Virus record (IMG/VR): IMGVR_UViG_3300047319_000532
Strand: one strand, 5' to 3'
Length of the DNA stretch: 64,000 nt
Source of the DNA: a virus
Shown here: positions 2,358-53,553 of the stretch, piece after piece
Layout of the letters: every line of letters starts with the position of its first letter
Numbering within the stretch: position 1 is the stretch's first letter
The notes under the pieces: model-generated
What the model saw: the letters and a program-made list of their open reading frames with translations, nothing else
The model's database searches: none
What the model was told of the DNA's origin: nothing
Program-made: the position numbers and the translations under genes

Positions 2358-2949
2358 TCGTTTCCTGAAGCTCGAGAAAAAGAAACAGCGGCGCGCCGAG
2401 CGTGAGATTGAGCTGGCTGGCCGTATCAGGGCTCTGCCAGAGCGAAGGTTTGGCGTGATCTATGCGGATCCGCCGTGGTCTTTCGAGACGTGGTCGGAGA
2501 ACGGCAACGATCGCGGCGCGGGCAATCACTATGCGACCAGCGCGCTCGACGTGATTTGCGATCTGAAGGTGCAGAACATTGCGGCCAAGGACTGCGTGCT
2601 GTTCCTGTGGGCGACCGCGCCCATGCTGATGGAGGCGATATGCGTGATGGAGTGCTGGGGCTTCGCCTACAAGACGCACACGGTCTGGCACAAGGCGCGC
2701 ATCGGCACCGGCTACTGGTTCCGCAGCCAACATGAACTGCTGCTGGTCGGCACGCGCGGCGACATTCCTGCGCCAGCCATGGGCACGCAGCACCCGTCGG
2801 TGCGCTGGCGTCCGGTCGGCGAGCACAGCGAGAAGCCTGAAATCTTTCACGAAATGATCGAAGACTATTTTCCAAACCTGCCCAAAATCGAGCTGTTTGC
2901 GAACACGTGGCGACCCGGCTGGACGACATGGGGCGCAGGCCATGACTGA
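2344..2949 (+). CDS. MT-A70 family DNA N6-adenine methyltransferase
   Basis: ATG 2344 inside track ORF 2080..2949. Catalytic DPPW motif (VIYADPPWSFETWS) and downstream LFLWAT / GYWFRSQHELLLVGTRG blocks typical of MT-A70. Confidence 0.85.
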   Translation: MIPLDRFLKLEKKKQRRAEREIELAGRIRALPERRFGVIYADPPWSFETWSENGNDRGAGNHYATSALDVICDLKVQNIAAKDCVLFLWATAPMLMEAICVMECWGFAYKTHTVWHKARIGTGYWFRSQHELLLVGTRGDIPAPAMGTQHPSVRWRPVGEHSEKPEIFHEMIEDYFPNLPKIELFANTWRPGWTTWGAGHD

Positions 2950-3370: not shown

Positions 3371-3795
3371 AAGAGACATCTCGCAAAATCTACATAAAGC
3401 TCAAATGCAGCGGTCGCATCGCCAGCATACAACGCAAGATTTGTGCGGCTATTCGCGACTATGGCGGAGGAGCTAACAGCCCCGGGCTGACAGCCAGACT
3501 GGCCTCGCTGGCCACCGGCGTCGATCTGCAGTCTGTCACCCAGCGTTTTGTCGAACTGCGGCGCATGGGGCTTATAGAGCCTGCGTATTTCAGCCCCGGC
3601 AAGACGGCGCTCGGCAAGACCAGCAACGAGTGCAGCTGGTACAGGCTGTCAAAAAACCCGCCGCCTAAGCACGCCATCTCGGAAGCTGAATTTTTGGAAT
3701 TGAGCGAAATGAACAACGAAGAGCGCCAGCAGGCCGCCGTTCGCGCTGGCGAAGTGGTGCTGGCCGCAGCGCCAGACTGGGAGCCCCGCCTGTGA
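3367..3795 (+). CDS. hypothetical MarR/winged-helix-like protein
   Basis: ATGA overlap with the previous gene. LTARLASLATGVDLQSVTQRFVELRRMGLIEP resembles a wHTH. Confidence 0.6.
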   Translation: MKETSRKIYIKLKCSGRIASIQRKICAAIRDYGGGANSPGLTARLASLATGVDLQSVTQRFVELRRMGLIEPAYFSPGKTALGKTSNECSWYRLSKNPPPKHAISEAEFLELSEMNNEERQQAAVRAGEVVLAAAPDWEPRL

Positions 3796-11315: not shown

Positions 11316-14312
11316 ATGAACATGGCCGATACGACAGGAAATTACAAGCCTTTTGACATTCCTCCGCCCGGATCTTCGTTAAACGCCCAGCTGGCGGCGC
11401 TTCAGCTGCTTGACAGGGGCTGGCAGGTCATCCCGCTGGTCGGCAAAGCCCCGAGGGCTCCGGGCTGGCAGGACGCCCCCGATCGGCTGGCCTTCCTCAA
11501 GGAGCACCTGCAGCCTGACGGCAATCTCGGCGTGGTCTGCGGCCATCCTACCGGCGGCTTCGGCGTCGATGGGCCGCTGTTCATGGTCGGGCTCGACATT
11601 GACTTCACCGACCTCGAGGCTGCGGTCGCAGCGCACAAGATGCTGACTGGCATGGCCTACCGCGTTGGCGCTTTCCCGAAATTCATGATCGCGGCGCAGG
11701 TGTCGGGCGGCGATTCCTACAGCATGGACTATGAATGGGTCAAAGACGACAAGTCGATCAAGCTGCAGATCCTTGGCCGTTCCGATCAGCAGGGCCCCAA
11801 GCAATTCGTCAACTGGGGCATGCACCCGGACACGCGCACGGCCTATCGGCACGAGAAGAACGCCGATGGCATGACGCTGTTCGACCTGCGCCCGAGCGAA
11901 TTGCCGATCGTGCATCTGGCCAGTTTCTACGCCGATTTGAACATCATTTTAGGCGCGCTGGGCTGGCGCTGGGTGATTAAGGCGACCAACGAGCCCGGCG
12001 AGGGCGAGTTTGCTGGCGACATTTCGCCGGAGATGATCCAGCGCGCCAAAAACCTGTTCAAGCGCAAGCTGGTCGATCTGGCGGCGCGCGCCGCTGGCAC
12101 CGGGCGCGGCGACGACACCCACAGGCTTGGCCTGCAGATCGGCATGCACATCAAGCGCGGCCTGCTGAGCCTTGACGAGTGCGTGGCGGAGCTGCAGGCG
12201 GCGATGCCCGACAATCCCAACGCATGGACGCGCGAATTTCAGCGCGGCGTGCACGCCTCCACCGGCGAGATGCTGAAGGCTGACGCAGCCCGGGAAGAGG
12301 CGAAGAGCAATATCGACTGGGAAAGCGCAGCCGCGGCGCAGGGCGTGGACTGGGAGGCGATCAAGACGAGGAGCATGGGCAATGGAGCCCCGCCGGGCGG
12401 CGGCGCTGGCGGGGCGTGTACACCGCCGCCCGGGCCGCGCAAGAGCGGCTACGAGCTGGCCCTCGACATGCTGCACGACAAGGTTGAGAAGAAAAACGTG
12501 CTGATGCACGGCGGCGACACCAGCATGGCGGCGATCGTGGCCGAGGCCGCCACTGCGGCGATGTGTCGGCGCGTGTTCCGCGGCGCGGCCAATGATGTGG
12601 TGCGCGTGCTGCCGTCGGCTGGCGCGCATGGTCTGGCGGCGCTGGTTGCGCCCGACGGCGATTTCAACCTTTCAGCTTTGCCCACACCCAATGTGCGCGA
12701 ATCCATCCCGACTGACGCAGGCTGCAAGCTGTTGATCAGCGACGCGGTGCAATGCTGGTCTGCAATTAATTCCCCCGTCCGTGACGGCAACACCAGCGCG
12801 GCGACGGTTTCCGAGGATGGCGACACCATCACGTGGCAGGAAACTAATCAACGCGGCGCGGTGGTGATGCTGGAGGCCAAGACCCACCAGTGGGCGTTGC
12901 GCGAGGGCTATAACATCGGGCGCGCCGCATGGCTCGACAATCGCGATGTGTGGATCCGCTGCGGCCCGCCCAAGGGCGACACCATGAAGGAGGCGATCTG
13001 CAATTTCCGGCTGGGCTCGGGCACGGTCGGCACGCCTCGCCTCAACAGCGTTTCGACGGCCCCATCCTTTGGCAGGGAAGGCCGCCTGCTGCTCGACGAT
13101 GGCGTGCTCGACGTGGGGCCCGGCGAAGTGGTTTTCACGGCGCTGGGGCCGCTGCGTGGCCGCGTGCACGTCAATGGCGACGCCGATGCGGCCAAGGCGC
13201 GGCTGCGGGCGTTCCTGAAGGCTTTCCCCTTCGTCGATGAGGTGTCGGAAGGCGTGGCGTTGTCGCTGCTGTTCACGCTGATGGCGCGCGGCGCTTTCCC
13301 CATCCCGCCGGGCTATGCGATCGACGCGCCGGAATATGGCGCAGGCAAGACCTATCTGGCGCTGGTCATGGCTGCGGTGGCAGGCATGGGCTACAATGTC
13401 ATCCCGTGCGGATCCGATGCAGGAACAGATGAAGAGTTGGTCAAGCGTTTCGAAACGGCGTTGATGACTGGCTCGAGCGGCATGCTGCTGCTTGACGACG
13501 TGCCCGGCGGCAAGATGCCGAACTTCTCCACGCTGCGCACCTACCTGTCGGCGACGACGCCGGAAATAAAGATCCGGCGCTTTGGCAAGAATGATGATCA
13601 GGTCACGGTCCGCATCGATCGCTCGACCTTGGTGGTGACGGGCAACGCGATCGACGTCAGCAAGGACATGATCCGCCGCCTGCTGCGCTGCTACCTGTCG
13701 CAGGGCGTGGCCAACGAGGAGACCGGCTGGACGACTGAAAAAGGGCGCGCAATCATTGAAGACGGCGTGTTCAAGGATCCAAATAAGTGGGCGCAGCTGC
13801 TGTCTGACGCGCTTACCATCCTCAAGCATAACTGGGACCACCGCCCCTGTCAGCTCACGCCTACGCAGAACTATGAGGGCTGGTCTCGCGTGGTGCGCGA
13901 GGCGGTCAAGTTTGCGCTTGGCGTCGATGTTGATGATTCACGTGAGGAAATGGCCGAATTTGATGACGATCGCCAGCAGTGGCAGGAAACCATGGCGCGT
14001 GTGTTTAGCATCAAGGGCGAGGCGGTGTTTACGACGGTTGATATTGCCGAGCTGGCCAAGGGCACAACTAGGTCATCGTCGTTTTCAGTCAGCGCGGCGT
14101 CAGCGCCAAAGCCGATCGACGAGCTGGCGGAGGAATTTGAATTTCACCGTGGTGGGCAGGCGAAGTTCGTAACACGGCTGGGTAATTTTCTCAAAACGCA
14201 CAAGGACAGAGCATTTCCAGTGGGCACTGACGCCATGCGCTTACGTCGCATGCCACACAAAACGAAAAACAGCAATGAGAAGACGCGCTGGCATTTTGTG
14301 AAGGTGCGCTGA
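11316..14312 (+). CDS. bifunctional primase-polymerase (Prim-Pol) / P-loop helicase
   Basis: N-terminal Prim-Pol signature LQLLDRGWQVIPLVGKAPRAPGWQD. Walker A EYGAGKTYLA and Walker B MLLLDDVPG in the C-terminal half. 998 aa. Confidence 0.9.
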   Translation: MNMADTTGNYKPFDIPPPGSSLNAQLAALQLLDRGWQVIPLVGKAPRAPGWQDAPDRLAFLKEHLQPDGNLGVVCGHPTGGFGVDGPLFMVGLDIDFTDLEAAVAAHKMLTGMAYRVGAFPKFMIAAQVSGGDSYSMDYEWVKDDKSIKLQILGRSDQQGPKQFVNWGMHPDTRTAYRHEKNADGMTLFDLRPSELPIVHLASFYADLNIILGALGWRWVIKATNEPGEGEFAGDISPEMIQRAKNLFKRKLVDLAARAAGTGRGDDTHRLGLQIGMHIKRGLLSLDECVAELQAAMPDNPNAWTREFQRGVHASTGEMLKADAAREEAKSNIDWESAAAAQGVDWEAIKTRSMGNGAPPGGGAGGACTPPPGPRKSGYELALDMLHDKVEKKNVLMHGGDTSMAAIVAEAATAAMCRRVFRGAANDVVRVLPSAGAHGLAALVAPDGDFNLSALPTPNVRESIPTDAGCKLLISDAVQCWSAINSPVRDGNTSAATVSEDGDTITWQETNQRGAVVMLEAKTHQWALREGYNIGRAAWLDNRDVWIRCGPPKGDTMKEAICNFRLGSGTVGTPRLNSVSTAPSFGREGRLLLDDGVLDVGPGEVVFTALGPLRGRVHVNGDADAAKARLRAFLKAFPFVDEVSEGVALSLLFTLMARGAFPIPPGYAIDAPEYGAGKTYLALVMAAVAGMGYNVIPCGSDAGTDEELVKRFETALMTGSSGMLLLDDVPGGKMPNFSTLRTYLSATTPEIKIRRFGKNDDQVTVRIDRSTLVVTGNAIDVSKDMIRRLLRCYLSQGVANEETGWTTEKGRAIIEDGVFKDPNKWAQLLSDALTILKHNWDHRPCQLTPTQNYEGWSRVVREAVKFALGVDVDDSREEMAEFDDDRQQWQETMARVFSIKGEAVFTTVDIAELAKGTTRSSSFSVSAASAPKPIDELAEEFEFHRGGQAKFVTRLGNFLKTHKDRAFPVGTDAMRLRRMPHKTKNSNEKTRWHFVKVR

Positions 14313-19016: not shown

Positions 19017-19547
19017 ATGGGCACACCTCCTCTCGTTTACCGCACGCCGCGCAAGGATCCCTGCGAATACAAACTGCCGTGGCGTGCGGTCTATTCGCCC
19101 TTCGTCGCCGAGCGAATCTGTGACGAAGTGGCCTCGGGCCGCACCCTCGACCGCATCGCCATCGAAGAGCCATGGGCCCCGAGCGCCCGCCAGATGCGCT
19201 ACTGGCTCAACGAGCACCCTGATTTCAAAGTCATCTATTACGACGCCATGCACATGCGGGCCGAAAAGGCGGCGCAGGAGATTCTCGAGGTGGCCGACGA
19301 CCTGACGGTCGATCCCGAAGACCGCAAGATCATGATCGCCGCCCGGCAGTGGCTGGCGGGCAAGCTCAACCCGCGGGACTGGGGCGAGCGCAAGATCCTC
19401 GAGCAGAACATCAACGCCACCGTCAAGGCGGTGCAGCAGCTCGACGTCAGCCATCTGAGCACGCCGGAGCTGCATGCGGCCCGGGCGGCTCTGGCTTCGA
19501 TCGTTGACGTGGTCGAGGGGAGCGACGAGGATGACGACACCGATTAA
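19017..19547 (+). CDS. terS: terminase small subunit
   Basis: ERICDEVASGRTLDRIA...QMRYWLNEHPDFKVIYYDAMHMRAEKAAQEILEVAD...RQWLAGKLNPRDWGE matches the TerS pattern I know from podophages. Sits just upstream of TerL. Confidence 0.7.
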   Translation: MGTPPLVYRTPRKDPCEYKLPWRAVYSPFVAERICDEVASGRTLDRIAIEEPWAPSARQMRYWLNEHPDFKVIYYDAMHMRAEKAAQEILEVADDLTVDPEDRKIMIAARQWLAGKLNPRDWGERKILEQNINATVKAVQQLDVSHLSTPELHAARAALASIVDVVEGSDEDDDTD

Positions 19548-19921: not shown

Positions 19922-20025
19922 CCATGACTGACGCCCTGTGGCCGGTGCTGGCTGTTATCGTGCTGTTCAGTATCGGCGTTGGGCTCGAGGCGGCATACCA
20001 TGCCATTAAGAAGGCCCTGAAGTGA
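19918..20025 (+). CDS. tiny membrane peptide (35 aa)
   Basis: Hand-read MTMTDALWPVLAVIVLFSIGVGLEAAYHAIKKALK. ATGA overlap upstream and GTGA overlap with the TerL start. Confidence 0.45.
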   Translation: MTMTDALWPVLAVIVLFSIGVGLEAAYHAIKKALK

Positions 20026-21650
20026 CCACAATCAGCCTGCCCAGAACGATCGACGCCCACGCCCTGAAGCGGTCGATCGACAAGGAGCTGTGCGAGCGCA
20101 GTCTGGCTGATTTTGTCAAGATGGCGTGGAAGCACATCGAGCCCGGGCAGGTCTATTTTCACAACTGGCACATTGATTTCATCTGCCAGCATCTCGAGGC
20201 GATCGAGCGCGAGGAGCGCGTCGATGACGAAGTCTACAATCGTTTATTGATCAACGTCCCGCCCGGCATGATGAAGTCGATGCTGGTCGGCGTGTTCTTT
20301 CCGGCATGGCTGTGGGGGCCGCGCAACAAGGCGCACCTGCGCATCCTCGCCGTCAGCCACAACATCGAGCTGGCTGAGCGCGACAACATGCGGATGCGCC
20401 GCCTGATCGAGAGCGAGTGGTATCAGGATCTGTGGGGCGATCGCGTCATCCTGACCAGCGACCAGAACGCCAAGCGGCGCTACGAGAACACCGCCACCGG
20501 CTGGCGCATGGCGGTCGCCGCGGGCGGCGTCACCGGCTGGCGCGCCGACATCGTGATCGTCGATGACCCCCATAGCGTCAAGGGCGGCGACAGCGACGCC
20601 GATCGCCAGACCGTCTGCACGTGGTTCCGCGAATCCCTGCCGACCCGCCTCAACCGGCCCGACTCCAGCGCCATTATCGTGGTCATGCAGCGGGTGCACG
20701 AGAACGACGTCAGCGGCACCATCCTCGACGGCGACATGGGCTACGACCACATCATGCTGCCGATGCGCTTCGACCCCGACCGGGCCTGCGGGACCAGACT
20801 GGGCTACGAGGATCCGCGCCAGATCGACGGCGAGCTGCTGTTCCCGGCCCGCTTTCCGCTGGCGGTGGTCGATCGCGACGAGAAGATCCTCGGGCCCTAC
20901 GCCACCGCCGGGCAGATGCAGCAAGCGCCGACCCCTCGAGGCGGCGGCGTGGTCAAGGACGCCGACTGGCTGCTGTGGGTCCAGCCCGAGTACCCGCCGC
21001 TCGACTTTATTCTCGCCTCGATCGACACCGCCTACACCGAAAAGACCCAGAACGACTATAGCGCCATGACGGTGTGGGGCGTGTTCTCGGGCGAGCACGA
21101 CAAGATGACGACGCGCGGGGCCGATCGCTACGGCAAGCCGTTCCCGATGCCCAAGGGCGGCGGCCCTGAAGGCATGAGCAAGATCGTGCTGATGTTCGCA
21201 TGGCAGGACCGGCTGTCGATCCATGATCTGGTCAAACGGGTGGCCGAAACCTGCAAGTCGATGAAGGTCGATCGTCTGCTGATCGAGAGCAAGGCCAGCG
21301 GCATATCGGTGTCGCAGGAGCTGCGCCGCCTCTACGCGCATGAGCCATGGGCGGTCCACCTCATCAACCCGGGCAATCAGGACAAGCTGTCGCGGCTGCA
21401 CAGCGTCGAGCATTTCTTCGCCGAAGGTATGGTGTATGCGCCCAACAAATCATGGGCCGAGCTGGTGATCCGGCAGGTCGCCAGCTTTCCCAAGGCCAAG
21501 CACGATGATTTGACCGACACCGTCAGTCAGGCCATCCGCCACCTACGCGATTCCGGCCTGCTAATTCGCTCGGAAGAGCATCTGGCTGACCTTGCCAACG
21601 AGATGGATTTCAATAATGTTAAGCAGCCCCCGCCTCTGTATTCGGTTTGA
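20022..21650 (+). CDS. terL: terminase large subunit
   Basis: 542 aa. ATPase Walker A-like VPPGMMKS, Walker B IVIVDDPH and a C-terminal nuclease-type region (ASIDTAYT...KHDDLTDT). Confidence 0.9.
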   Translation: MTTISLPRTIDAHALKRSIDKELCERSLADFVKMAWKHIEPGQVYFHNWHIDFICQHLEAIEREERVDDEVYNRLLINVPPGMMKSMLVGVFFPAWLWGPRNKAHLRILAVSHNIELAERDNMRMRRLIESEWYQDLWGDRVILTSDQNAKRRYENTATGWRMAVAAGGVTGWRADIVIVDDPHSVKGGDSDADRQTVCTWFRESLPTRLNRPDSSAIIVVMQRVHENDVSGTILDGDMGYDHIMLPMRFDPDRACGTRLGYEDPRQIDGELLFPARFPLAVVDRDEKILGPYATAGQMQQAPTPRGGGVVKDADWLLWVQPEYPPLDFILASIDTAYTEKTQNDYSAMTVWGVFSGEHDKMTTRGADRYGKPFPMPKGGGPEGMSKIVLMFAWQDRLSIHDLVKRVAETCKSMKVDRLLIESKASGISVSQELRRLYAHEPWAVHLINPGNQDKLSRLHSVEHFFAEGMVYAPNKSWAELVIRQVASFPKAKHDDLTDTVSQAIRHLRDSGLLIRSEEHLADLANEMDFNNVKQPPPLYSV

Positions 21651-23657: not shown

Positions 23658-23863
23658 TGATGAAAGCGCAGGCCACTGTCGATCGTTTCGTGTTTCCCAG
23701 CGGCATGCCGTCAAAGTCGATGTGGAAGGTCTATGTTTCGGACCCGTCACACGAGCACAGGCGCGACTACACCATCATCGCCGACGACGAAGACGCCGCG
23801 GCCAAGGAGGGATTGCGTCGTTTTCAGGCCGAACTGGACCCGGAGCCCCATCTGGACGTATAG
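23657..23863 (+). CDS. hypothetical protein
   Basis: ATG 23657 overlapping the previous stop, inside track ORF 23609..23863. Confidence 0.55.
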   Translation: MMKAQATVDRFVFPSGMPSKSMWKVYVSDPSHEHRRDYTIIADDEDAAAKEGLRRFQAELDPEPHLDV

Positions 23864-23892
23864 TCGGGCCAAACATCCCTCGAGGACGCGCC

Positions 23893-26400
23893 ATGCCGCT
23901 TGTGCCGGGACTGTCACCCTCTATCCGCGTCACCAACGAGGGAGTGCCCGGCGCGATCGCCCCCGGCCTCTCAATCAGGCACGACAACGAGAATTACGAA
24001 GGCGCGCCAGAAGTCGATAAATCCGGCGCGGTCATCAAGATCGAGCATGCCGATGGATCGGTCACTGTCTCCCTCGACGGCAACCCGCTGATCGGCGCGC
24101 CGGAAGACGAGAACGCAGGCTGGTTCGACAACCTAGCCGACAAGATCGAAGACAACGAGCTGGCGCGCATCGCCGACGACCTGCTGCGCGGCGTCGATGA
24201 CGACCTGCAGAGCCGCAGCGACTGGATCGAGGAGCGCGCCCAAGGCATCAAGCTGCTCGGGTTCAAGATCGAGCTGCCCAACGTGTCCGGCTCGACCGAC
24301 GGCGCTCCGGTCGAAGGCATGTCCAAGGTGCGGCACCCGCTGCTGCAGGAGGCCGTGCTGCGTTTTCAGGCCAACGCCCGCTCGGAAATGCTGCCGACCG
24401 ACGGCCCGGTCAAGATCCGCGACGACGGCAATCAGGGCAATATCCAGCAAGACACGGTGGCCAATGCGCTCCAGAAAGACCTCAACCACTATCTTACGGT
24501 CACCGCCACTGAATATTATCCCGACACGGATAAGATGTTTCTGCTGCTTGGATTCGGCGGCACCTCGTTCAAGAAAGTTTATAATTGTCCGCTACGAAAT
24601 CGGCCCGTGTCTGAATCGGTTGACGCCAACGACCTCATCGTCAACGACGCCGCCACCGACCTAGCCAACGCCAAGCGCGTCACCCATCGCATCCAGATGA
24701 AGCCGTCCACCGTCAAGCGCATGCAGATCATCGGCGCTTACCGCGACATCGATCTGGCGACGCCGCTCGAGCCCAAGACCGACGCGGCCAAGGAGGCGGC
24801 CAACAACCAGCAGGGCATCACGCCCAGCTCGATGCGCCCGGATGACCGCAACCGGGAAATCTACGAGTGCTATTGCGAGCTGGACATCAAGGGCTACGAA
24901 CACAAGCACAAGGGCAAAGTGTCCGGCCTCGAGGTGCCCTATTGCGTCACCATCGACGTGTCGTCGAAGCAAGTGCTGTCGGTCACCCGCAATTTTGACG
25001 AAGAGACGCGAAAATTGCCGGTCGCGCGCGAGAATTTCGTCAAATACACCTATGTGCCCGGGCTGGGCTTCTACGACCTCGGCCTGCTGCACATCCTTGG
25101 CAACACCACCAACGCAACGACGGCTGCATGGAGAGAAATGCTCGATGCTGGCATGTTCGCCAGTTTCCCCGGCTTCCTGATGGCAGACACGGGGGCTCGC
25201 CAGAACACCAATATCTTCCGCGTGCCGCCGGGCGGTGGCGCGTTGGTAAAGACCGGCGGGCTACCCATAAATCAGGCCATCATGCCCTTGCCTTACCAGC
25301 CGCCGAGCCCGGCGCTGATGCAGCTGATCGACAACATGGTGCAGACTGGCCAGCGTGTTGGCGGCACCGCCGAGATGCCGGTCGGCGAGGGCAAGGCCGA
25401 CATCCCGGTCGGCACTATCCTCGCCCTGATCGAGCAGGCGACCAAGGTGCTGAACGCGGTCCACAAGCGCATGCACGCCGCGCAGGCGCAAGAATTTCGC
25501 CTGATGGTCCGCTGTTTCAAGGAAAACCCCAAGGCGTTCTGGCGCGCCAACAAAAAGCCAGCCACGCAATGGGACGAGCAGACTTTCCTCGCCGCGCTCA
25601 ACAACAACGAGCTGACGCCGCAGGCCGACCCCAACACCTCGAGCTACGCCCAGCGCATCATGAAGATCATGGCGCTCAAGCAGCTGCAGCAGCAGAGCCC
25701 CGGGCTCTATGACCCGATCGCGATCGACACCGCGGCGGTGTCGGCGCTCGGCTTCACCAATCCGCAACAGTTCATGGCACCTCCGCAGGCGCAGGCCGCG
25801 CCGCCGCCCGAGCTGCTCAAGCAGCAGGCCGAGACGCAGGCCAAGCAGACGCAGGCGCAGGCCCAGATGATCAAGGCGCAGGCCGACGCCAAGGTGGCCG
25901 ACGCCAAGAGCCAGAGCCTGCTGGCGGAGGCGCAGGGGCAAGGGCTCGCCGGTGGCGGGCAGGTGGACACCGAAGTCGATCGCCACATGGCCGAAACCAA
26001 GCGCATGGAGGCCGAGACCGGCCAGACGGTCGCCGAACACAACATGACGATCGCGCAAGCCAAGGCGCAGGCCGAATTGCAGAACGCTGGGACGCGCGCC
26101 AAGGAGCTGCAGCTGAAGGTGGCGGGCACGCATATGGACGACGCCCACCACCAAGAGGAGCTGCAGGCCAAAGCCAAGGAAAACGCCGTCAATCTGGCCA
26201 AAGAAGTGCTGCAGACCAAGGCGGAAGACCACCGCACCATGGCGATCGAGGGCGCGGCCCACCAGCACGAGCGCGGCATGCAGGCTGAAGCCCACGCCCA
26301 CGAGCACGCGCTGGCCGACAAGGACAAGGAAAAGGCGATCGCGGTCGCCAGAGCCCGGCCAAAGCCTGCCGCCGCCAAGCCGAAAGGCAAAAAGCCATGA
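23893..26400 (+). CDS. portal protein with long Gln/Ala/Lys-rich C-terminal helix
   Basis: ATG 23893 inside track ORF 23722..26400, 835 aa. Assigned by position after TerL, size, and a C-terminal ~200-aa coiled helical region reminiscent of a P22-type portal barrel. Confidence 0.75.
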   Translation: MPLVPGLSPSIRVTNEGVPGAIAPGLSIRHDNENYEGAPEVDKSGAVIKIEHADGSVTVSLDGNPLIGAPEDENAGWFDNLADKIEDNELARIADDLLRGVDDDLQSRSDWIEERAQGIKLLGFKIELPNVSGSTDGAPVEGMSKVRHPLLQEAVLRFQANARSEMLPTDGPVKIRDDGNQGNIQQDTVANALQKDLNHYLTVTATEYYPDTDKMFLLLGFGGTSFKKVYNCPLRNRPVSESVDANDLIVNDAATDLANAKRVTHRIQMKPSTVKRMQIIGAYRDIDLATPLEPKTDAAKEAANNQQGITPSSMRPDDRNREIYECYCELDIKGYEHKHKGKVSGLEVPYCVTIDVSSKQVLSVTRNFDEETRKLPVARENFVKYTYVPGLGFYDLGLLHILGNTTNATTAAWREMLDAGMFASFPGFLMADTGARQNTNIFRVPPGGGALVKTGGLPINQAIMPLPYQPPSPALMQLIDNMVQTGQRVGGTAEMPVGEGKADIPVGTILALIEQATKVLNAVHKRMHAAQAQEFRLMVRCFKENPKAFWRANKKPATQWDEQTFLAALNNNELTPQADPNTSSYAQRIMKIMALKQLQQQSPGLYDPIAIDTAAVSALGFTNPQQFMAPPQAQAAPPPELLKQQAETQAKQTQAQAQMIKAQADAKVADAKSQSLLAEAQGQGLAGGGQVDTEVDRHMAETKRMEAETGQTVAEHNMTIAQAKAQAELQNAGTRAKELQLKVAGTHMDDAHHQEELQAKAKENAVNLAKEVLQTKAEDHRTMAIEGAAHQHERGMQAEAHAHEHALADKDKEKAIAVARARPKPAAAKPKGKKP

Positions 26401-29400
26401 ACAGGGCCATCCGCTCGGCGCTGCTGACGGCGCACAACCTCTACAAGCACATCCCGCATGTCGTCGGCGGCGGCGCGCCGATGCACAATGGCGGCATACC
26501 GGAAGGCTACGCCGACGGCGGCGCGGTCGATCCGACCATGCCGGAGCCGGAGAAGACGGTCAAAGCCTACAAGCTGTTCCGGCACAAGAACGGCAAGCTG
26601 TTCCCGCTCTACGTCAACGCCAACCAAGAGGTACCGATCGGCAAGTGGCTGAGCGCCGAAGCCGGTCCCCCGGGCAAGGACAAAGGCAAGGTTAAAAGCA
26701 AGCTCGGCGATCTGGCCTACCGGCCCGGCTGGCACTCTGGCGACATGCCGGTGGCCACGCACATCGGATCCAAAAGCCAGAAGGGGCTCACAGCGCCCGA
26801 CACGCGCCCGCCCGAGCATGTCTGGGCGGAAGTCGAGCACCCGGCAGACGTCGATTGGCAGAGCGTCGCCCACAATCGGGCTCAGATTATGAAAAGCGGC
26901 CTGCCCAATCTGGCCACCGCGCACATTACTGATCAGGTGCCGCACGGCGGCCACTATCGCTACAAGACCAACCCCAACATGACCGGCAACTGGATTATCA
27001 GCGGCGGCATGAAGGTCAATCGCGTGCTGCCGCACGAGGAAGTGCAGGCGCTTAACCAGCAGCATGGCGTCTATGACCTGCCGCGGCGCGAGCCTCAAAG
27101 CTTTGAACCCGATGAACGCCCCGGGCGTGACGTCGGCGGCCAGCTGACTGCGCCGCCGCCAGCTCCCGCTAAGCCGCCGATCGATCTATCCCGCTATCAG
27201 GATGCGCCGACCCAGAAGCTGCAGGATATGCCATGGCGGCCACTGGCCGACGTCCACGCCGATCTGGGCCACATGAGCGAAATTCCGTCGCATGTGCAGC
27301 ATTTTGGCCGCTTCATGGACGAGTCTGCCGAGAAGGCCGCCACCAAGGGCCTGACGCCGCGCGACCTGCTCAAGGCTTACGCCATCACACGCGCCTCGAT
27401 CGGTCGCGGCGCGCTGCCGCGCAAGACGCTCGAGGCCAATGGCTGGCAAGTGCCCGAAGGCGTGGACTCGCTCCGCCCCGAAGGAGCCATGGGCGAGTGG
27501 CTGCATACGCCAATGGGGCAGGAATACTTGCACCACGCCGAGCGTGGGCGCGTGCACGAGGGCGCGATCGCCGACGCCGTGCGCAAATTCAGGCCATTCG
27601 GCAAGCAAAACGACACCGAAGGCAAGGCGCTGGCGTGGGCCGCGCATAACCTGCCCGGCATGGAAGGCCACGTCTCCAAGATGGTGCAGGCGTCGCGCCA
27701 CAAAGACGCCAACCCTACCCTGTGGCGGCACTTCATCAAGACGGTCCCGGGCGTCAACATCGCCAAGGCGGGCTTTCTGGGCTCGATGCTGGGTATGGGC
27801 AACCAGCCGACGCTCGATGCGCGCCAGCTCATCCTCAACACCGGCAGGCCAACCAGCGAGGCGGCCAAGCCGATGTCGCGCGTAGGCGGCGCAGAGGAGG
27901 CGGTCGATCGTCTGGCTGCACGCCAGAAGGCGCTGCAGCTCGGCATACCGGAAGATTTGGAGCCTTATTACCAGCACCTTGCCCATCATGCGATCTGGGA
28001 CAAGTCGGCAGGCGAACAAACGACGCACGCCGACCTGATGCACGCCATGCGCTACGCAGCCAAGGGCGGCAGCATCATCAAAACCTCGGGCGGGACGTGG
28101 CCTGATCTAGGCAGTCATGAACTTGCACGCTCCATGCACGCAGTTTTTGGAGGCGCAGGCGGTCTGGGAGGCTTGTGGAAGGGCGCGAGCGACCAAAATG
28201 TGCGCGAACAGCTGCTAAACACGCCGGATTACGCCAATCCAAACCCAGAATTGGTTAAAAAGGCGCTGGCGCTGGCTCAAAAGACCCATGGCGTCAACCA
28301 AACCTTCGATTCGAAGTCGGGAATGTCGTATTCCAACTTCAAAGGCGGCACCAGACCGATCAGTGATGTCACTTCGACAGTAGAACCGATCCCGGGCGTC
28401 ACGCCGAAGCCTGTAAAACAGCTGGATTGGCAGGATTTCATCCGAAAAAACAAGGGCGCGAGCCTAATTAACGTCGGCGGCGACCGTTCGCGGCTGGGAC
28501 GACTGACTCACATCAACGACAAGGCGTTAGGCTGGCCTGTGGACCTGCATGCGGGCCCGGATTACATGCGCGAGCCAAATAAAGGCGCGGTTTGGGCCAA
28601 TGCCCAGAGCAACGCCAGCGGTTTTGCCAACACGGTCAAGAAACTTGGCGAACACGGCAAAGTTTTTGGCGTTTACAAGCCAATGGGCCCGCAGAGCGTC
28701 GATTCATCCCGCCAGATGAGCGACGCCCTGATGTCGCAGATCGCCGCGCAGCCGCTGGATCCCAAAGTGGCGCAGGAATTGGACGCCGAACTGAAAAAAG
28801 GCGCGCATGAGCCAGACGCAGCGGCGCGTGCCAAGGCGGTGGCGTCGATGGAAAACTGGCCCGGCTTCAGCAACCCGCGCGAGGCGCGCGATCACCTGCT
28901 CAAATTGCCCGGGACCGCGCGCAGCTTGGTCGTCAAGCACCTAGACAAGGCCGGGTGGCATGCAAAAGGCGTCCCGCATATCGGGCACACGCGCGTTGCG
29001 CTGACGGATCCGGCGGCGCTGACGACCCCCGGCCACATGCTCGGGCACCGCATCGTCGAATTGACGGGCGGGCACCCGGAAGCCTCCGCGTTCGAGCACA
29101 ATACATATCCCGTGCCCACCGGCGGTAGGTATGTCGGCGACGTGCCCAACGTGCTGGCGCACTACGCCATGCCGGAAGTGCAGCGTGGCTTCGCGCTCAA
29201 GCATCATGCTGCAGGCATGACGCATCCGCTGTCTGAAGCAGCTGGAGCGCGGTCGAGTTTTATCAAAATGATGGGCGAGCAGAAGAATGTTCAGCCGATC
29301 AATGAGGAAATGGCGCAGGGCGTTGGGCACGCGCAGGAAGTGCAGCAGGGCTTGAAACAAGCTGGCGTGCCCGGCTACGCCGAAGGCGGCGTGGTCGATA

Positions 29401-30917
29401 AGGCGCTGGCCATGACTGCTCCCCGCGCCCTCACGCCATCCGGCCTCTACAGTCAGGCGGGCGACGCCGCGGCTGCGCTGCCGCAGGCCAAGGGCTCGCC
29501 GCAGCAGATGATCGCCAGCATGAAGGGCGTCAAGCCGGAGGAGCTGGCGCACGCCAACCCCATGGGCAAGTTCGGCGATCAAAAAAGCGTGACGCGCGAC
29601 CAGCTTGCCGGGCACATGCGCTTCAACCTGCCGCGGATCAACGAGACCACGCACAGCGACGACGACATCGACGAGGATGACGAGGGCGAGCGCGCAGGCG
29701 GCCCGAAATATGAGGAATACTCAATCCCCGGCGGCCAGAATTATCGCGAGTTGGTGATGCACACGCCCAAGACGCCGACGCCACCGGCGACGCCGGAGAT
29801 GCAGGCGGCGCTCAAGCACCAGAACGACACTTACTGGGCGGCTAATGGCTGGCACATGCGCAACCAGTATGCGCTCGACAAAGATAATCCCGAGAAGATG
29901 GCCGAATACAAGACCCTGCATGACGCCCAGACTGCGGCGCAGCGCCATTACAGCCAGCTGCAGCAGGAGCATGTCGCCAAGGCCAAAGCGAAAGACTATC
30001 ATTCCAGCCATTGGGATGAGCCCAATGTGCTGGCCCACCTGCGCATGTCCGATCGCAAGCTGCCCAATGGCGAGAAGGCGCTCCACCTCGAGGAGCTGCA
30101 GAGCGACTGGGGGCAGGGTGCGCGTGAGCATGGCGTGCGCGGCGCAGAGCCGGAGCCCGACTGGCAGAAGAACCTCGAGGAAATGCGCAGCCGCCGTGGC
30201 AAAGAGGGCTTTGCCGACCCGGCGGAAGAGGCGCGCTTTCAGAAGCTACACAAACATGAGTGGGCGGTGCCTGCCGGTCCACATATTGGCTCGACCAACG
30301 GCTGGACCGATCTGGGGCTCAAGAGGGCTTTGATCGAGGCGGCTCGAGGCGGTCACGATCGGCTGGCGTGGACGCCGGGCGAAGAGCATGCCGATCGCTA
30401 CGGGATGCAGAAGCACTTCAGCGAAATACGCTATGAGCCTAGCCGGAAGCATCTTTATGCTTTCCAGCATGCTGGCGCTGGCGCGTCGCCGCAGGAAGTC
30501 GAACCAGACCAGCTGCACCAGTATGTCGGTCGCGATCTGGCCAACCGGCTGCTGTCCACCGAACCGAAGAGCGGCGCGCATGTGCTCACCGGCGACGATC
30601 TGCGCGGCGGCGGCGAAGGCATGAAGGCGTATTACGACAAGCTGGTGCCGACCCGGCTCAAGGAGATTCTCAAAAAGTTGGGGCATGAGGCTGATTTTGA
30701 ACCAGTAACCATCAAACACCCTTCCAAACACGGCAAGCGCGGCGACGACGCCCAGACCACGCTGCACTCAGTCAAGCTGCCGAAAGAGTTGCGTGAGAAG
30801 ATCAAAAAGGGCCTGCCTGCGTTCAGCACCGGCGGCGATGTCGATATGGTGAACCGTGCTTTGCGTGTCACGGCCAAACCTGCCAAACTACACGCCCAAC
30901 GCGCTTTGGGGAGTTAG
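26397..30917 (+). CDS. giant (1506 aa) virion-module protein, function unknown
   Basis: ATGA overlap with the portal stop. Continuous ORF with no family I can name. See findings. Confidence 0.85.
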   Translation: MNRAIRSALLTAHNLYKHIPHVVGGGAPMHNGGIPEGYADGGAVDPTMPEPEKTVKAYKLFRHKNGKLFPLYVNANQEVPIGKWLSAEAGPPGKDKGKVKSKLGDLAYRPGWHSGDMPVATHIGSKSQKGLTAPDTRPPEHVWAEVEHPADVDWQSVAHNRAQIMKSGLPNLATAHITDQVPHGGHYRYKTNPNMTGNWIISGGMKVNRVLPHEEVQALNQQHGVYDLPRREPQSFEPDERPGRDVGGQLTAPPPAPAKPPIDLSRYQDAPTQKLQDMPWRPLADVHADLGHMSEIPSHVQHFGRFMDESAEKAATKGLTPRDLLKAYAITRASIGRGALPRKTLEANGWQVPEGVDSLRPEGAMGEWLHTPMGQEYLHHAERGRVHEGAIADAVRKFRPFGKQNDTEGKALAWAAHNLPGMEGHVSKMVQASRHKDANPTLWRHFIKTVPGVNIAKAGFLGSMLGMGNQPTLDARQLILNTGRPTSEAAKPMSRVGGAEEAVDRLAARQKALQLGIPEDLEPYYQHLAHHAIWDKSAGEQTTHADLMHAMRYAAKGGSIIKTSGGTWPDLGSHELARSMHAVFGGAGGLGGLWKGASDQNVREQLLNTPDYANPNPELVKKALALAQKTHGVNQTFDSKSGMSYSNFKGGTRPISDVTSTVEPIPGVTPKPVKQLDWQDFIRKNKGASLINVGGDRSRLGRLTHINDKALGWPVDLHAGPDYMREPNKGAVWANAQSNASGFANTVKKLGEHGKVFGVYKPMGPQSVDSSRQMSDALMSQIAAQPLDPKVAQELDAELKKGAHEPDAAARAKAVASMENWPGFSNPREARDHLLKLPGTARSLVVKHLDKAGWHAKGVPHIGHTRVALTDPAALTTPGHMLGHRIVELTGGHPEASAFEHNTYPVPTGGRYVGDVPNVLAHYAMPEVQRGFALKHHAAGMTHPLSEAAGARSSFIKMMGEQKNVQPINEEMAQGVGHAQEVQQGLKQAGVPGYAEGGVVDKALAMTAPRALTPSGLYSQAGDAAAALPQAKGSPQQMIASMKGVKPEELAHANPMGKFGDQKSVTRDQLAGHMRFNLPRINETTHSDDDIDEDDEGERAGGPKYEEYSIPGGQNYRELVMHTPKTPTPPATPEMQAALKHQNDTYWAANGWHMRNQYALDKDNPEKMAEYKTLHDAQTAAQRHYSQLQQEHVAKAKAKDYHSSHWDEPNVLAHLRMSDRKLPNGEKALHLEELQSDWGQGAREHGVRGAEPEPDWQKNLEEMRSRRGKEGFADPAEEARFQKLHKHEWAVPAGPHIGSTNGWTDLGLKRALIEAARGGHDRLAWTPGEEHADRYGMQKHFSEIRYEPSRKHLYAFQHAGAGASPQEVEPDQLHQYVGRDLANRLLSTEPKSGAHVLTGDDLRGGGEGMKAYYDKLVPTRLKEILKKLGHEADFEPVTIKHPSKHGKRGDDAQTTLHSVKLPKELREKIKKGLPAFSTGGDVDMVNRALRVTAKPAKLHAQRALGS

Positions 30918-30921
30918 GATC

Positions 30922-31176
30922 ATGTGCTTTTCACTCGCTTGGCTGCAACAGCTGCTGATCTGGATCGTGATCGTCGGCGCAATCGTCGCCATCCTGCAGC
31001 TGTTCGTGCCGTGGGTGGTGGCCAATGCTGGCATTTTTGGTGATGCGGTGAACATCATCCTGCAGATCATCAAGATCGTCGTATGGGCGATCGTGGTCAT
31101 TTTTGTCATTTACGTCGCGTTCGATCTGATCAGCTGCCTGCTGTCGTCAGGCTCTCTCAAGTTGCCGCGGTCGTAA
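30922..31176 (+). CDS. polytopic small membrane protein (84 aa)
   Basis: ATG 30922 inside track ORF 30856..31176. Almost entirely hydrophobic (LLIWIVIVGAIVAIL..., IIKIVVWAIVVIFVIYVAF). Confidence 0.65.
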   Translation: MCFSLAWLQQLLIWIVIVGAIVAILQLFVPWVVANAGIFGDAVNIILQIIKIVVWAIVVIFVIYVAFDLISCLLSSGSLKLPRS

Positions 31177-31219: not shown

Positions 31220-32377
31220 ATGTCCGCACAAGCAAAACAATACCGCGCAGCGATGAAGGCTAAAGCCCAAAGGCTGGGAGGCAATATGTCAGCTGGCAAG
31301 GTTGACGCCAGCTCATTCGGGCCTGTCGAGGGCTCGGATCCGCTCAACGCCGACATCAAGGCTGGCCTGCGCCCGGTCGCCCCACGCGCCTATCAGCGCG
31401 GCGGCGCGGTGACCGGCGAGGAGCACCATGCCCACGGTGGCCGCGTTGGCCGCAAGAGCGGCGGAGGCATGCCGAGAAAGATCGCCGATGAAATCGCCAT
31501 GAACGATGTGGTGGACGCCAACAAGTCGATCTATGGCAGCAAGCACGTCGGCGGCCTGAAGCGCGGCGGAAAGGCTGGCGGCGGCCCGCTGGGCGGCTTC
31601 AACGCCATCACCAGCCCGCAACAGGCTGCGGCGGCTGGGCAGGCCACGCAGAACGTCGCAGGCGTCGCTCCGCAGCGCATGCAGTTCGGTCAGGGCGCAC
31701 CCGGTTTGCTGCACGTCAAGAAGGGCGGCGCGGTAAAACGTGATGCGGGCGGATCCACCAAAGACAACGCTGATGTTGTGTTGCCGAAGAAGGGCGACGA
31801 TGGCTCGAGCGGCCCCGGACGTCTGCATGGGTACGCCGAAGACAACAGCGGCGGCGAGACCCCGAAAAAGCGCGGCGGCAAGGTCGAGCATCCATACAAG
31901 GCGGAAGACAAAGCTTGCGCCAAGAAACTGGCGCGGCACCACCGCGCTGCAGGCGGGGGAGAAGATCCCGACGAGGCGGAAGACAAGGCCGATCAGGCTG
32001 AGCAGGCTGAAAAGAAGTGCAGCGGCGGCTCGATGCGCGCCGCGCGCGCCCATGGCGGCAAGACTGGCAAGGGCAGGACCAATATCAACATCATCATCGG
32101 GGCGCACGCGCCCGGCGGTGAACAGCAGCAGCCTCCGGGCGGGCCTCCGGCTCCGCCGCCGCCGCGTCCGATTCCGGTGCCGCCTCCGGCAATGCCGGGC
32201 GGGCCGCCTCCGGGCGCAGGCGGGCCGCCTCCGATGGGCGGGCCGCCTCCGATGCCCATGCCTCCGCCGGGTGGCATGCCGCGCGCTTCCGGCGGGCGGG
32301 CTTATCCGATCCAGCATGCTGCAGGCGGCGGCAAGGGCCGCCTCGAGAAGATCAAAGCCTATGGAGAGAAACCATGA
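31220..32377 (+). CDS. very basic Gly-rich protein with repeated x-G-G-[K/R] motifs and a C-terminal poly-proline tract
   Basis: 385 aa, RBS gagaggactaaaaccATG. Motifs QRGGAV, AHGGRV, KRGGKA, KKGGAV, KRGGKV, AHGGKT, ASGGRA. PPGGPPAPPPPRPIPVPPPAMPGGPPPGAGGPPPMGGPPPMPMPPPGGMP. Confidence 0.7.
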   Translation: MSAQAKQYRAAMKAKAQRLGGNMSAGKVDASSFGPVEGSDPLNADIKAGLRPVAPRAYQRGGAVTGEEHHAHGGRVGRKSGGGMPRKIADEIAMNDVVDANKSIYGSKHVGGLKRGGKAGGGPLGGFNAITSPQQAAAAGQATQNVAGVAPQRMQFGQGAPGLLHVKKGGAVKRDAGGSTKDNADVVLPKKGDDGSSGPGRLHGYAEDNSGGETPKKRGGKVEHPYKAEDKACAKKLARHHRAAGGGEDPDEAEDKADQAEQAEKKCSGGSMRAARAHGGKTGKGRTNINIIIGAHAPGGEQQQPPGGPPAPPPPRPIPVPPPAMPGGPPPGAGGPPPMGGPPPMPMPPPGGMPRASGGRAYPIQHAAGGGKGRLEKIKAYGEKP

Positions 32378-33489: not shown

Positions 33490-33705
33490 ATGGCATTGAC
33501 AAGTCGGGCCGCGTTCGCACAAAGTATGCGGGAGCAGGTCCGCATACGGGTCGATGCTTTGAAAGACAATATGGCGTTTGGCGGCGGCGTGCCCACCTTT
33601 GAGGCGTACCGCGAGCTGGTCGGTCAAGTGAGGGGCCTGTATGAGGCCATCGAAATACTCGACGAGGCCGAACGCATTATCGAAGAACGTGAAAGAGGCC
33701 GCTGA
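33490..33705 (+). CDS. hypothetical protein
   Basis: 71 aa, first ORF after the terminator. Confidence 0.55.
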   Translation: MALTSRAAFAQSMREQVRIRVDALKDNMAFGGGVPTFEAYRELVGQVRGLYEAIEILDEAERIIEERERGR

Positions 33706-34091
33706 TGGCTTATGCCCAGATGGAGCATGAATTGGAGCCTCGTTTGAAGCTCCTGAAAGAATTGGGCGACATTTCGGGCATCGAGCTGTTCACCAACCAC
33801 GTGCTGGTTGCGGTCTACCAGCGTCCTGAAAAGACCAAGTCCGGCATCTTCCTGCCCGGCCAGACGCGAGATGAAGATCAATACCAATCCAAAGTCGGCC
33901 TCGTGATCAAGAAAGGGGCGCAGGCTTTTGTCAGCACCGGCGGCTGGAATTTCGAAGACGTCAATGTAGAGGACTGGGTCATCTTTCGCCCCTCCGACGG
34001 CTGGGCCACCGGCATCAATGGCGTCTACTGCCGCTTTCTCGTCGATACCTCCATCAAAGGGCGCGTCAGCTCGCCTGACCTGATCTGGTGA
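33705..34091 (+). CDS. GroES/Cpn10-like co-chaperonin
   Basis: NHVLVAVYQRPEKTKSGIFLPG...SKVGLVIKKG...VEDWVIFRP follows the Cpn10 pattern (mobile-loop-like KTKSGIxLP). Upstream of scaffold and capsid. Confidence 0.55.
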   Translation: MAYAQMEHELEPRLKLLKELGDISGIELFTNHVLVAVYQRPEKTKSGIFLPGQTRDEDQYQSKVGLVIKKGAQAFVSTGGWNFEDVNVEDWVIFRPSDGWATGINGVYCRFLVDTSIKGRVSSPDLIW

Positions 34092-36319: not shown

Positions 36320-37234
36320 ATGGCCGTCAATCTCAGCGCCATCAAAGACCTTCTGCTTCCGGGCTTGCGCGGTGTTGAGGGCAAATACGAGATGATCCCG
36401 TCGCAATACGACAAGGTCTTCACGAAACACACCTCCAAGCTGGCGCTCGAGCGCACCGCTGAAATGCGGTATCTCGGCCTCGCCCAGCTGAAGACTGAAG
36501 GCGGCCAGACCTCCTTCGACAACGGCGCTGGCGAACGCTACGTCTACAATCAGGAGCACACCGAAATCGGTCTCGGCTATGCGATGACCCGCAAGGCCAT
36601 CGACGACAACCTCTACAAGACCCAGTTCCATCCGTCGAACCTCGGCCTGATCGAGTCATTTCAGCAAACCAAGGAAATCTACGGCGCGAACATCCTGAAC
36701 ACGGCGACGACCTACAACGCCAACATCGGCGGAGACGGTCAGGCGCTCTGTGCCGTGGCGCATCCGATCGACGGCGCGACGGTTGGCAACATGCCAGCGG
36801 TGCAAGTCGATCTGAGTGAATCCACCCTGCTCAACAGCATGATCGCAACTCGCACGAACTTCAAGGATCAGGCGGGCTTGAAGGTGTTTGCGCGCGCTCG
36901 CAAACTGATCGTGCCGCCCCAGCTGGAGCCGGTGGCCATCCGCCTGACCAAAACCGAGCTGCGGCCCGGAACAGCAGACAACGACGTCAACGCAATATTG
37001 ACCACTTCGGGGGGACTGCCCGAAGGCTATATCGTCAACGACTTCTTGACGTCTGCTTTCGCTTGGTTCCTTCTCACCAATATTGACGGTCTGTCATTCA
37101 TGGAGAGAATTAAGTTCGAAACCGATATGCAAGTCGATTTCGTGACCGATAACTTGCTGGTGAAAGGATACGAGCGTTATTCGTTCGGCTACTACAACTG
37201 GCGGGCGATCTACGGCAACTTCCCGACCTCGTAA
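36320..37234 (+). CDS. major capsid protein
   Basis: 304 aa. Assigned by position after scaffold and by size and composition typical of HK97-fold coat proteins (…AERTAEMRYLGLAQLKTEGG…). Confidence 0.8.
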   Translation: MAVNLSAIKDLLLPGLRGVEGKYEMIPSQYDKVFTKHTSKLALERTAEMRYLGLAQLKTEGGQTSFDNGAGERYVYNQEHTEIGLGYAMTRKAIDDNLYKTQFHPSNLGLIESFQQTKEIYGANILNTATTYNANIGGDGQALCAVAHPIDGATVGNMPAVQVDLSESTLLNSMIATRTNFKDQAGLKVFARARKLIVPPQLEPVAIRLTKTELRPGTADNDVNAILTTSGGLPEGYIVNDFLTSAFAWFLLTNIDGLSFMERIKFETDMQVDFVTDNLLVKGYERYSFGYYNWRAIYGNFPTS

Positions 37235-37739: not shown

Positions 37740-38051
37740 ATGAAAGCAACTGCGCGCAAGTTCGGCGGCCCCACCAAGGGCGACAAAGTCGAAGCTAAAG
37801 ACGTCAAAAACAAAGAGATGAAGCACTCCGAGAAGGAAGACGAAGTGCACGAGGAAGCCGATGAATTTCACGCCAAGAAGGGCGGGAAGGTCAAGAAGCA
37901 GGTCGGCGGTCCGGTCGGGGCTTCAGCGCGCGCCCACGGCGGTCGCGCCGCGCGCAAGAGCGGCGGCTCCTGTGAAGACAGCCCGTTCTCTTCGGCTCGA
38001 GCTGGCACCGCAGCGCCGGGCAGGAAGCTGCAAAAGACCACGATGGATTGA
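37740..38051 (+). CDS. small basic protein with KKGGKV / AHGGRA motifs
   Basis: ATG 37740 inside track ORF 37656..38051. Confidence 0.6.
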   Translation: MKATARKFGGPTKGDKVEAKDVKNKEMKHSEKEDEVHEEADEFHAKKGGKVKKQVGGPVGASARAHGGRAARKSGGSCEDSPFSSARAGTAAPGRKLQKTTMD

Positions 38052-49274: not shown

Positions 49275-49758
49275 GGATGTGAAAGTTCGTTTCGGCGTGC
49301 CAGATGACGTCCACAACTTCATGGACCTCACCTTCATGTGCGCGGAAGAAAACGGCCTGCTGTCGATGAGCACTCCGAAGGTGCTCAAGGAGGTGTGGGC
49401 CAGCCTCAACAATGATCACGGTCTCATAGGCGTGATCGAGAGCAGCGAAGGCGTGCTCGAGGCGGGCATCCTGTTGCGCGTTGACACCATGCCATACAGC
49501 GAAGACCCAGTCATATGCGAGCGTGCGATCTTCGTCAGACCGGAGTTTCGCGCCGCCAAGGGCGGGCGCGCCAGTCGGCTGTGTGAATTTGCCAAAGTCG
49601 TCTCGGACAAGCTGGAGATGCCGCTGCTAATCGGTGTTTTGTCAACGCATCGCGCTGCTGGTAAGGTGCGTCTATACGAGCGTCATTTTGGAAAGCCAGC
49701 CGGAGCCTACTGGCTATACGGGGCCAACACTGGCCCAGAACAAGAAGCGGCGGAGTAG
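49267..49758 (+). CDS. GNAT-like N-acetyltransferase
   Basis: 163 aa. ERAIFVRPEFRAAKGGRASRLCEFAKV resembles the acetyl-CoA binding motif A. Confidence 0.55.
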   Translation: MTEDVKVRFGVPDDVHNFMDLTFMCAEENGLLSMSTPKVLKEVWASLNNDHGLIGVIESSEGVLEAGILLRVDTMPYSEDPVICERAIFVRPEFRAAKGGRASRLCEFAKVVSDKLEMPLLIGVLSTHRAAGKVRLYERHFGKPAGAYWLYGANTGPEQEAAE

Positions 49759-49762
49759 GGCG

Positions 49763-53551: not shown

Positions 53552-53553
53552 CG

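Follow-up and report, generated by a model that had tools for sequence, protein, structure and literature searches.

We propose that a giant protein of 1,506 amino acids, encoded directly downstream of the portal gene in a phage genome, is probably a phage polyvalent protein, that is, a string of four autonomous cassettes that would be carried in the phage head and delivered along with the DNA. Its gene is an uninterrupted open reading frame (ORF) on the plus strand (26397 to 30917) of a 64,000-nucleotide stretch, hereafter the window, which represents the minus strand of a 67,094-bp metagenomic virus entry that is rated complete (IMG/VR record IMGVR_UViG_3300047319_000532). According to predicted structures, the cassettes are arranged in the order A (ADP-ribosyltransferase-like), B-C (an Ogg2-like glycosylase together with a YTH/ASCH-like base-reader), and D (a GNAT-like acyltransferase), such that all four modules are enzyme-like or base-reader-like in predicted fold. 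We assign the protein to the polyvalent class because its modules are permuted, split, and fused to other domains among relatives, and because they adjoin the portal. The class itself is already known; the four modules were previously unannotated.

The giant gene is expressed with the head genes, being translationally coupled to an SU10-type portal gene. Reading the sequence directly, we found an ATGA overlap (26397 to 26400, plus strand) in which the ATG of the giant gene (26397 to 26399) lies across the TGA of the portal gene (26398 to 26400), in keeping with the translational coupling that the initial annotation had described. The portal gene (23893 to 26400, plus strand) matches Pfam SU10_portal (4.7e-15) and phrog_1216 (4e-27). 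The longest ORF for this gene begins at 23722, but the portal start of the nearest GenBank phage, MW202675, aligns with the methionine at 23893, which is probably the true start. The stretch that opens the longer ORF (23722 to 23892, plus strand) is rich in arginine and glycine. The arrangement is conserved: of 135 related loci, 88 have a same-strand portal of this type next to the modules. Although the position after the portal is usually held by MuF/gp7-type minor head proteins, the giant protein has no Pfam match at E <= 0.1 over its full length, including to the MuF (Phage_Mu_F), LPD, and ART-PolyVal models. Finally, a database fragment from a separate assembly, P0003, is 100% identical over residues 293 to 1506 and contains the B-C-D fusion as well, which shows that the joining of the later modules is no quirk of a single assembly.

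Evidence for modularity comes from the relatives of the giant protein, of which 292 were recovered in a search of 5.8 billion proteins. Module order is permuted among them, with D-B-C being common and one relative being organized as B-C-ART-D-D, and the partner domains include ART-PolyVal, InPase, PcfJ, GNAT, ASCH, M15, and DUF7178. This recurrence of shuffled modules in the company of effector-type domains bears out the earlier proposal of a polyvalent protein with several domains. Modules B and C usually occur together, and each was also seen alone. In IMG/VR loci, the modules are often encoded one after another by individual ORFs, most typically A first, then D, then B-C. Similarly, the portal gene of MW202675 is followed by three genes (one containing M15, then D, then B-C) as opposed to the single gene in the window, and the roseophage CRP-212, which among cultured phages is the closest to carry a module, encodes a 1,203-residue module A protein (gp38) at the equivalent position.

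We located the borders of the modules by BLAST mapping of 119 homologues onto the giant protein and by AlphaFold modeling. Homologue alignments have sharp borders at residues ~38, 235, 263, 560, 616, 1000, and 1483, which yields four homology blocks: A (residues ~38 to 235), B (263 to 560), C (616 to 1006), and D (~995 to 1483). Residues 1 to 1010 were modeled as three confident domains (mean predicted local distance difference test [pLDDT] of 78), with pLDDT falling below 50 in segments 15 to 46, 233 to 260, 557 to 599, and 991 to 1010; the model of residues 1002 to 1474 has a mean pLDDT of 70. The multidomain architecture that had been anticipated from the sequence thus holds in the models, which predict four independently folding modules joined by linkers with pLDDT below 50. 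The first 36 residues form a leader (26397 to 26504, plus strand), modeled as a helix at residues 2 to 17 with pLDDT below 50 from residue 15 onward. This leader is conserved, with close relatives aligning from residues 1 to 3 of the query; its helix bears an element, RAIRxALLT, that resembles the tail motif discussed below and is followed by a glycine-rich stretch. Modules A and B are separated by a proline-rich disordered linker (residues 236 to 262; 27102 to 27182, plus strand; pLDDT below 50 over residues 233 to 260), and few homologue alignments span it. Family alignments were built from translated loci. One of these (A4) was rebuilt with bridging rows and then checked row by row, and the combined fragment alignments (A2 and A3) were excluded because MAFFT had placed module B fragments over module A and module D fragments over module C.

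Module A (residues 46 to 235; 26532 to 27101, plus strand) is beta-rich and weakly ADP-ribosyltransferase-like. Its model weakly matches ADP-ribosyltransferase (ART)-type folds, and among named clusters of the Atlas, Arr, PARP, and Tox-ART-HYD1 come closest. Module B (residues 263 to 551; 27183 to 28049, plus strand) is predicted to adopt an Ogg2-type HhH-GPD DNA glycosylase fold, the model being two-lobed and all-helical as in the HhH-GPD superfamily. Its signature, at residues 455 to 477, runs from K457 through a G-x-x-G hairpin and a Gly/Pro run to P-T-L-D474-A-R-Q. Across 29 sequences, K457, G459, F460, and D474-A-R are invariant, and conservation reaches at least 90% at S463, G466, G468, and P471-T-L. 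The 17-residue spacing between the lysine and the aspartate is close to that of the catalytic pair in the bifunctional HhH-GPD glycosylase/lyases Nth and OGG1, and from this spacing, rather than from a residue-level superposition, we infer that K457 and D474 are equivalent to that pair. Pfam PF00730 (HhH-GPD) matched neither the giant protein, nor the 29 family members (E <= 10), nor the genome in a six-frame search. Relative to the Ogg2-type glycosylase/lyases Tm1821, MjOgg, and SsOgg (PDB 3n0u, 3knt, and 3fhg), module B has an identity of only 11 to 15% and differs in being fused to a reader-like domain within a protein of the virion module. The Ogg2-like fold of the model also lies near the queuine-salvage DUF2419 enzymes.

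The core of module C (residues 650 to 992; 28344 to 29372, plus strand) is predicted to be a PUA-like beta-barrel of the YTH/ASCH type, and similarity to relatives begins earlier, near residue 616. Its match to YTH and ASCH domains is weak, and the module departs from the YTH/ASCH/EVE group of PUA-like readers in having a large helical insert (residues 767 to 866) and no sequence similarity to them. An Atlas search with this module returned only low-scoring clusters of polyvalent proteins (0.81), which carry no information on fold. Elsewhere in the window is a gene for an MT-A70-family N6-adenine methyltransferase (2080 to 2949, plus strand; Pfam 5.4e-24). Given this gene, the phage probably methylates adenines, and the methylase may be relevant to the YTH-like module C.

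Module D opens with a small N-terminal subdomain (residues 1013 to 1085; 29433 to 29651, plus strand), which is supported by a family alignment (A1) and by the model and is found in only part of the family. Beyond it lies the acidic patch, DDDIDEDDEGE, that the initial annotation had singled out (residues 1088 to 1098; 29658 to 29690, plus strand). The patch is indeed present and falls in a variable disordered loop, is not conserved, and has pLDDT below 50 over residues 88 to 112 of the model; homologues carry insertions of varying length at this position. The core of module D (residues 1104 to 1474; 29706 to 30818, plus strand) is predicted to have the alpha/beta fold of a GNAT-type acyltransferase, into which a long helical hairpin is inserted. 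Within this core lies the segment HWDEPNV...QSDW (residues 1205 to 1240; 30009 to 30116), for which the initial annotation had noted a resemblance to a module of large polyvalent proteins. That resemblance holds at the level of the family, as the segment is the best-conserved core of module D and is common to many polyvalent proteins. None of 14 module D family members matched a Pfam GNAT model, and the motif that binds the pyrophosphate of acetyl-CoA (Q/R-x-x-G-x-G/A) could not be placed with confidence in the family alignment. Compared with GNAT acyltransferases such as the AtaT/KacT/TacT toxins, NatD, and the C-terminal domain of ICL2, module D is set apart by additional subdomains and by a helical hairpin insert of 75 residues. 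Judging from the alignments, invariant polar residues in modules A, B, and D look catalytic.

Established annotation resources contributed little to these assignments. The whole giant protein had no match in NCBIfam, and sequence and profile searches of the PDB with the protein and with three family alignments (A5, A1, and A4) returned none either. Running Pfam at E <= 10 on all members of the module B and module D alignments produced scattered chance matches only. The PHROG matches of the giant protein are to families of unknown function, one of which covers residues 55 to 233. We discarded as spurious a PHROG match to an endolysin, along with the labels "Type I restriction enzyme," "yenB," and "Clp" attached to MW202675 proteins, since the profiles behind them are giant multidomain or coiled-coil ones and none is in accord with the folds that we found.

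The modules of the giant protein are punctuated by a short peptide built around two glycines. The initial annotation had reported a duplicated motif, GYADGGAVD (residues 37 to 45; 26505 to 26531) and GYAEGGVVD (residues 993 to 1001; 29373 to 29399). Both copies are real, but there are four rather than two, and they behave as a boundary tag at the ends of modules, all on the plus strand. The first copy sits in a linker with pLDDT below 50. The second, a degenerate RYAAKGGSII (residues 552 to 561; 28050 to 28079), has a Gly-Gly pair that is at least 95% conserved and sits at the margin of the low-pLDDT stretch beginning at residue 557. The third, which also has pLDDT below 50, extends into a tail element, KALAMT (residues 993 to 1010 in all; 29373 to 29426), and conservation of its G993, G997, and G998 is 95% or more. 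The fourth, a degenerate AFSTGGDVD (residues 1475 to 1483), continues into a C-terminal tail containing NRALRVT (residues 1484 to 1506; 30819 to 30914 with the motif). Among the 119 homologues, the pattern [YFW][AST]xGGx[VILM] occurs 182 times, versus a mean of 4.1 and a maximum of 10 in shuffled sequences, an enrichment of ~44-fold. Copies fall within 10 residues of an alignment or protein end in 45% of cases, compared to 8% of random positions, and 35% of module-bearing ORFs have GGx[VILM] among their final 50 residues versus 14.7% of internal windows (p = 7e-7). Similarity at the DNA level between the first and third sites is confined to the 27 nucleotides of the motif, with different flanks, and thus the motif is not a DNA repeat.

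The consensus of the peptide is G-[YF]-A-[DE]-G-G-[ED]-V or, more loosely, G-[YF]-A-[DE]-G-G-x-V, often followed by (D/E)(K/R)ALx(L/V)T, and some homologues carry tandem copies. In the giant protein, both the C-to-D junction and the C-terminus conform to GG-x-V-D...(K/R)AL-x-(M/V)-T, and a similar element is present at the N-terminus. In relatives where modules are encoded by stand-alone genes, the same peptide is retained at the C-terminus, and many homologues end in such a tail; for example, the separate B-C protein of MW202675 closes with a tail of the same type. Motif sites lie 5 to 44 residues upstream of C-termini and in disordered linkers between modules. Because stand-alone module genes end with the peptide and its copies sit at module ends, we conclude that it is the end piece of a cassette, which turns into a linker when cassettes are fused. 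Three types of tail can be distinguished: (D/E)(K/R)ALx(L/V)T, ...HHLEIEERPL, and ...DTMRxAL(S/T)..KKAK. Among the 1,547 open frames of the loci, 34 ORFs bear a tail of any of these types, and 32 of them are module bearing. One lineage in IMG/VR (loci L054, L079, L082, L089, L091, and L094) has its modules upstream of the portal. There, two different conserved C-terminal tails are found within one phage: A or B-C proteins carry ...HHLEIEERPL, and proteins containing D carry ...DTMRxALS..KKAK, which hints at two docking classes.

Related peptides are found in other proteins of the window. Peptides of the xGGx[VI] type occur in late proteins, with seven (xGGx[VA]) in the product of 31220 to 32377 and others in that of 37740 to 38051. 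The former (plus strand) is a basic 385-residue protein with no family match and a poly-proline/glycine tract at its C-terminus, whose counterpart in MW202675 is mislabeled "yenB"; this protein, too, may be internal and tagged. Two large proteins have C-terminal ends reminiscent of the giant protein's cassette-end tag. One, of 735 residues (55207 to 57414, plus strand), closes with RGGRV and then a KALNV tail, and the other, an ejection-type protein of 1,305 residues (49634 to 53551, plus strand), ends in YASGGLV. A portal peptide, GLAGGGQVD, was considered as a fifth copy and dropped, as a GG-type motif is present in only 11 of 48 distinct portal tails.

If the giant protein is indeed a polyvalent protein, it would be incorporated close to the portal during procapsid assembly, travel in the head, and enter the cell by extrusion along with the DNA. 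Once inside, its modules would target proteins as well as nucleic acid, either that of the host or that coming in. Module A could carry out an NAD+-dependent modification and module D an acyl transfer, while B-C, guided by the reader domain, could make an excision or a nick at a specific base that is perhaps a modified one. A link of B-C to adenine methylation through the MT-A70 methylase of the phage is speculation. For each cassette, the end peptide would serve as a docking or address element, a processing tag, or both, and we rank docking above cleavage because no protease was found in the late region. More tentatively, and with less confidence than we have in the polyvalent assignment, it can be imagined that the G-[YF]-A-x-G-G-x-V peptide and its (K/R)ALx(L/V)T tail constitute a widely used and undescribed address or cut tag and, at the same time, that B-C is a virion-delivered glycosylase/lyase for modified bases, which would damage host DNA or undo a host-imposed mark at entry.

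Several considerations weigh against the polyvalent interpretation. The phage is known from a metagenomic record, and the presence of the protein in virions and its injection are predictions. The giant protein lacks the MuF and peptidase domains that are typical of many polyvalent proteins (no Pfam matches), and no protease was recognized in the head module, leaving the processing idea without a candidate enzyme. Assignments of fold rest on predicted structures, with no sequence-level match in Pfam, NCBIfam, or the PDB even across family members, and activity does not follow from a predicted fold of the GNAT or glycosylase type. Lastly, gp38 of CRP-212 bears module A without a GG motif, and hence the tag is not obligatory.

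Among the alternatives, the one that fares best is a sub-variant of the polyvalent reading and compatible with it. Here, the GG peptides would be cleavage sites, and the product would be cut into four enzymes, either in the procapsid or after injection, with the stretch following the GG as a removable propeptide. The location of the motif in disordered linkers exactly between modules and 5 to 44 residues before C-termini would suit such a polyprotein, as would the tandem copies in homologues. Gly-Gly-X processing of virion polyproteins occurs in adenovirus and African swine fever virus. Furthermore, the T4 Alt protein sheds propeptides at both of its ends (PMC9026906), and processing was proposed for polyvalent proteins by Iyer et al. 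(PMC5512222). Yet, in the late region we found no Pfam peptidase family other than Peptidase_S74 and no PHROG protease family above threshold, no cleavage products are known, and the residues after the GG are themselves conserved as a tail, a finding no less compatible with a docking peptide. On balance, we consider cleavage into four enzymes doubtful, albeit worth retaining.

Considerably less plausible is the possibility that the giant protein is not packaged, and that it is instead a late cytoplasmic multi-enzyme that modifies or proofreads the DNA of the phage before packaging, for example through reader-guided base exchange or excision together with the MT-A70 methylase. The proximity of the module B fold to the queuine-salvage enzymes and the combination of a YTH-like module C with an N6-adenine methylase in the same genome are consistent with such a role. 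However, DNA modification genes normally sit with replication genes, whereas these modules follow the portal in most of the related loci, and their fusion partners are ART-PolyVal, M15, and further domains of the effector type. Least probable of all is an internal core or ejectosome protein that acts as a DNA conduit, like T7 gp16 or crAss001 C1, with enzyme-like folds that are vestigial or scaffolding: head-module position, large size, and BFVD Foldseek matches that include a Flavobacterium phage protein annotated as "structural protein" speak for it, but the giant protein lacks any transmembrane or cell-wall-hydrolase part, ejection-type proteins are encoded separately at 49634 to 57414, the free permutation, loss, and splitting of modules would be unexpected for a fixed structural component, and the invariant polar residues look catalytic.

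The remainder of the window contains further phage genes. These include genes for a DNA polymerase (3792 to 5741), a primase-like protein (11316 to 14312), the small terminase (19017 to 19547), the large terminase, TerL (20022 to 21650), and the major capsid protein (36320 to 37234), along with tail genes and the ejection-type genes that are distinct from the giant gene. Only 5 nucleotides past the stop of the giant gene is the start of a small ORF (30922 to 31176, plus strand) whose ~84-residue product is very hydrophobic, with two or three likely membrane spans. A gene for a Cpn10/GroES-like co-chaperonin (33705 to 34091, plus strand; Pfam 1.5e-07) is located between the giant gene and a scaffold-like gene. 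The ORF at 49634 to 53551 contains a Peptidase_S74 (endosialidase intramolecular chaperone) domain at residues 323 to 373 and otherwise matches virion and DNA-ejection PHROGs; two or more genes, or a site of autoprocessing, may be hidden in it.

According to prediction, no phage proteins encounter the host earlier than polyvalent proteins do, and almost none of them have been tested experimentally. Our analysis provides fold-level assignments for four widespread and unannotated modules that are found in hundreds of proteins from uncultured phages. In addition, the conserved end peptide offers a concrete, mutable handle on the loading and release of cargo enzymes in phage heads. If the peptide is an address tag, it could be used for loading foreign proteins into particles. 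In the literature that we searched, we found no glycosylase-plus-reader domain pair, including in connection with polyvalent proteins, and no published description of the end-tag motif; there was also nothing relevant on ART-PolyVal or on elemoC phage.

Comparison with known systems places the giant protein closest to the phage polyvalent proteins, whose genes adjoin portal and terminase genes, undergo rampant domain shuffling, and encode products that are predicted to be delivered (Iyer, Burroughs, Anand, de Souza, Aravind 2017, PMC5512222). Shared features are the presence of several unrelated effector-type domains in one polypeptide, the shuffling, the portal/terminase neighborhood, and the occurrence of ART-PolyVal, InPase, GNAT, PcfJ, and M15 in homologues. 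The giant protein differs in that none of its four modules is recognized by Pfam and in having neither MuF nor a metallopeptidase. The account of Iyer et al. never uses the word "glycosylase" and describes no linker or junction motif. A second point of reference is T4, where Alt is a packaged and injected ADP-ribosyltransferase that loses propeptides at both ends, and where a capsid-targeting sequence is known (PMC9026906). The likeness lies in an ADP-ribosyltransferase-type enzyme, which in T4 is carried in the head and injected, and in the short terminal peptides that direct incorporation there. Alt, though, is a single enzyme whose propeptides are cut by the gp21 protease at L/I-x-E, in contrast to the four modules, Gly-Gly-type peptide, absence of a recognizable protease, and podovirus-like SU10-type portal of the present case. 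The third is the cargo of crAss001, which consists of an RNA polymerase and channel-forming proteins instead of the present enzyme set and to which no sequence relation was shown. What the two have in common is large size combined, in crAss001, with storage in a podovirus-like particle and extrusion ahead of or with the DNA, and the cargo protein C1, which is bound to the portal and thought to be extruded in a partly unfolded state, illustrates how such a passage can be envisaged (Bayfield et al. 2023, PMC10172136).

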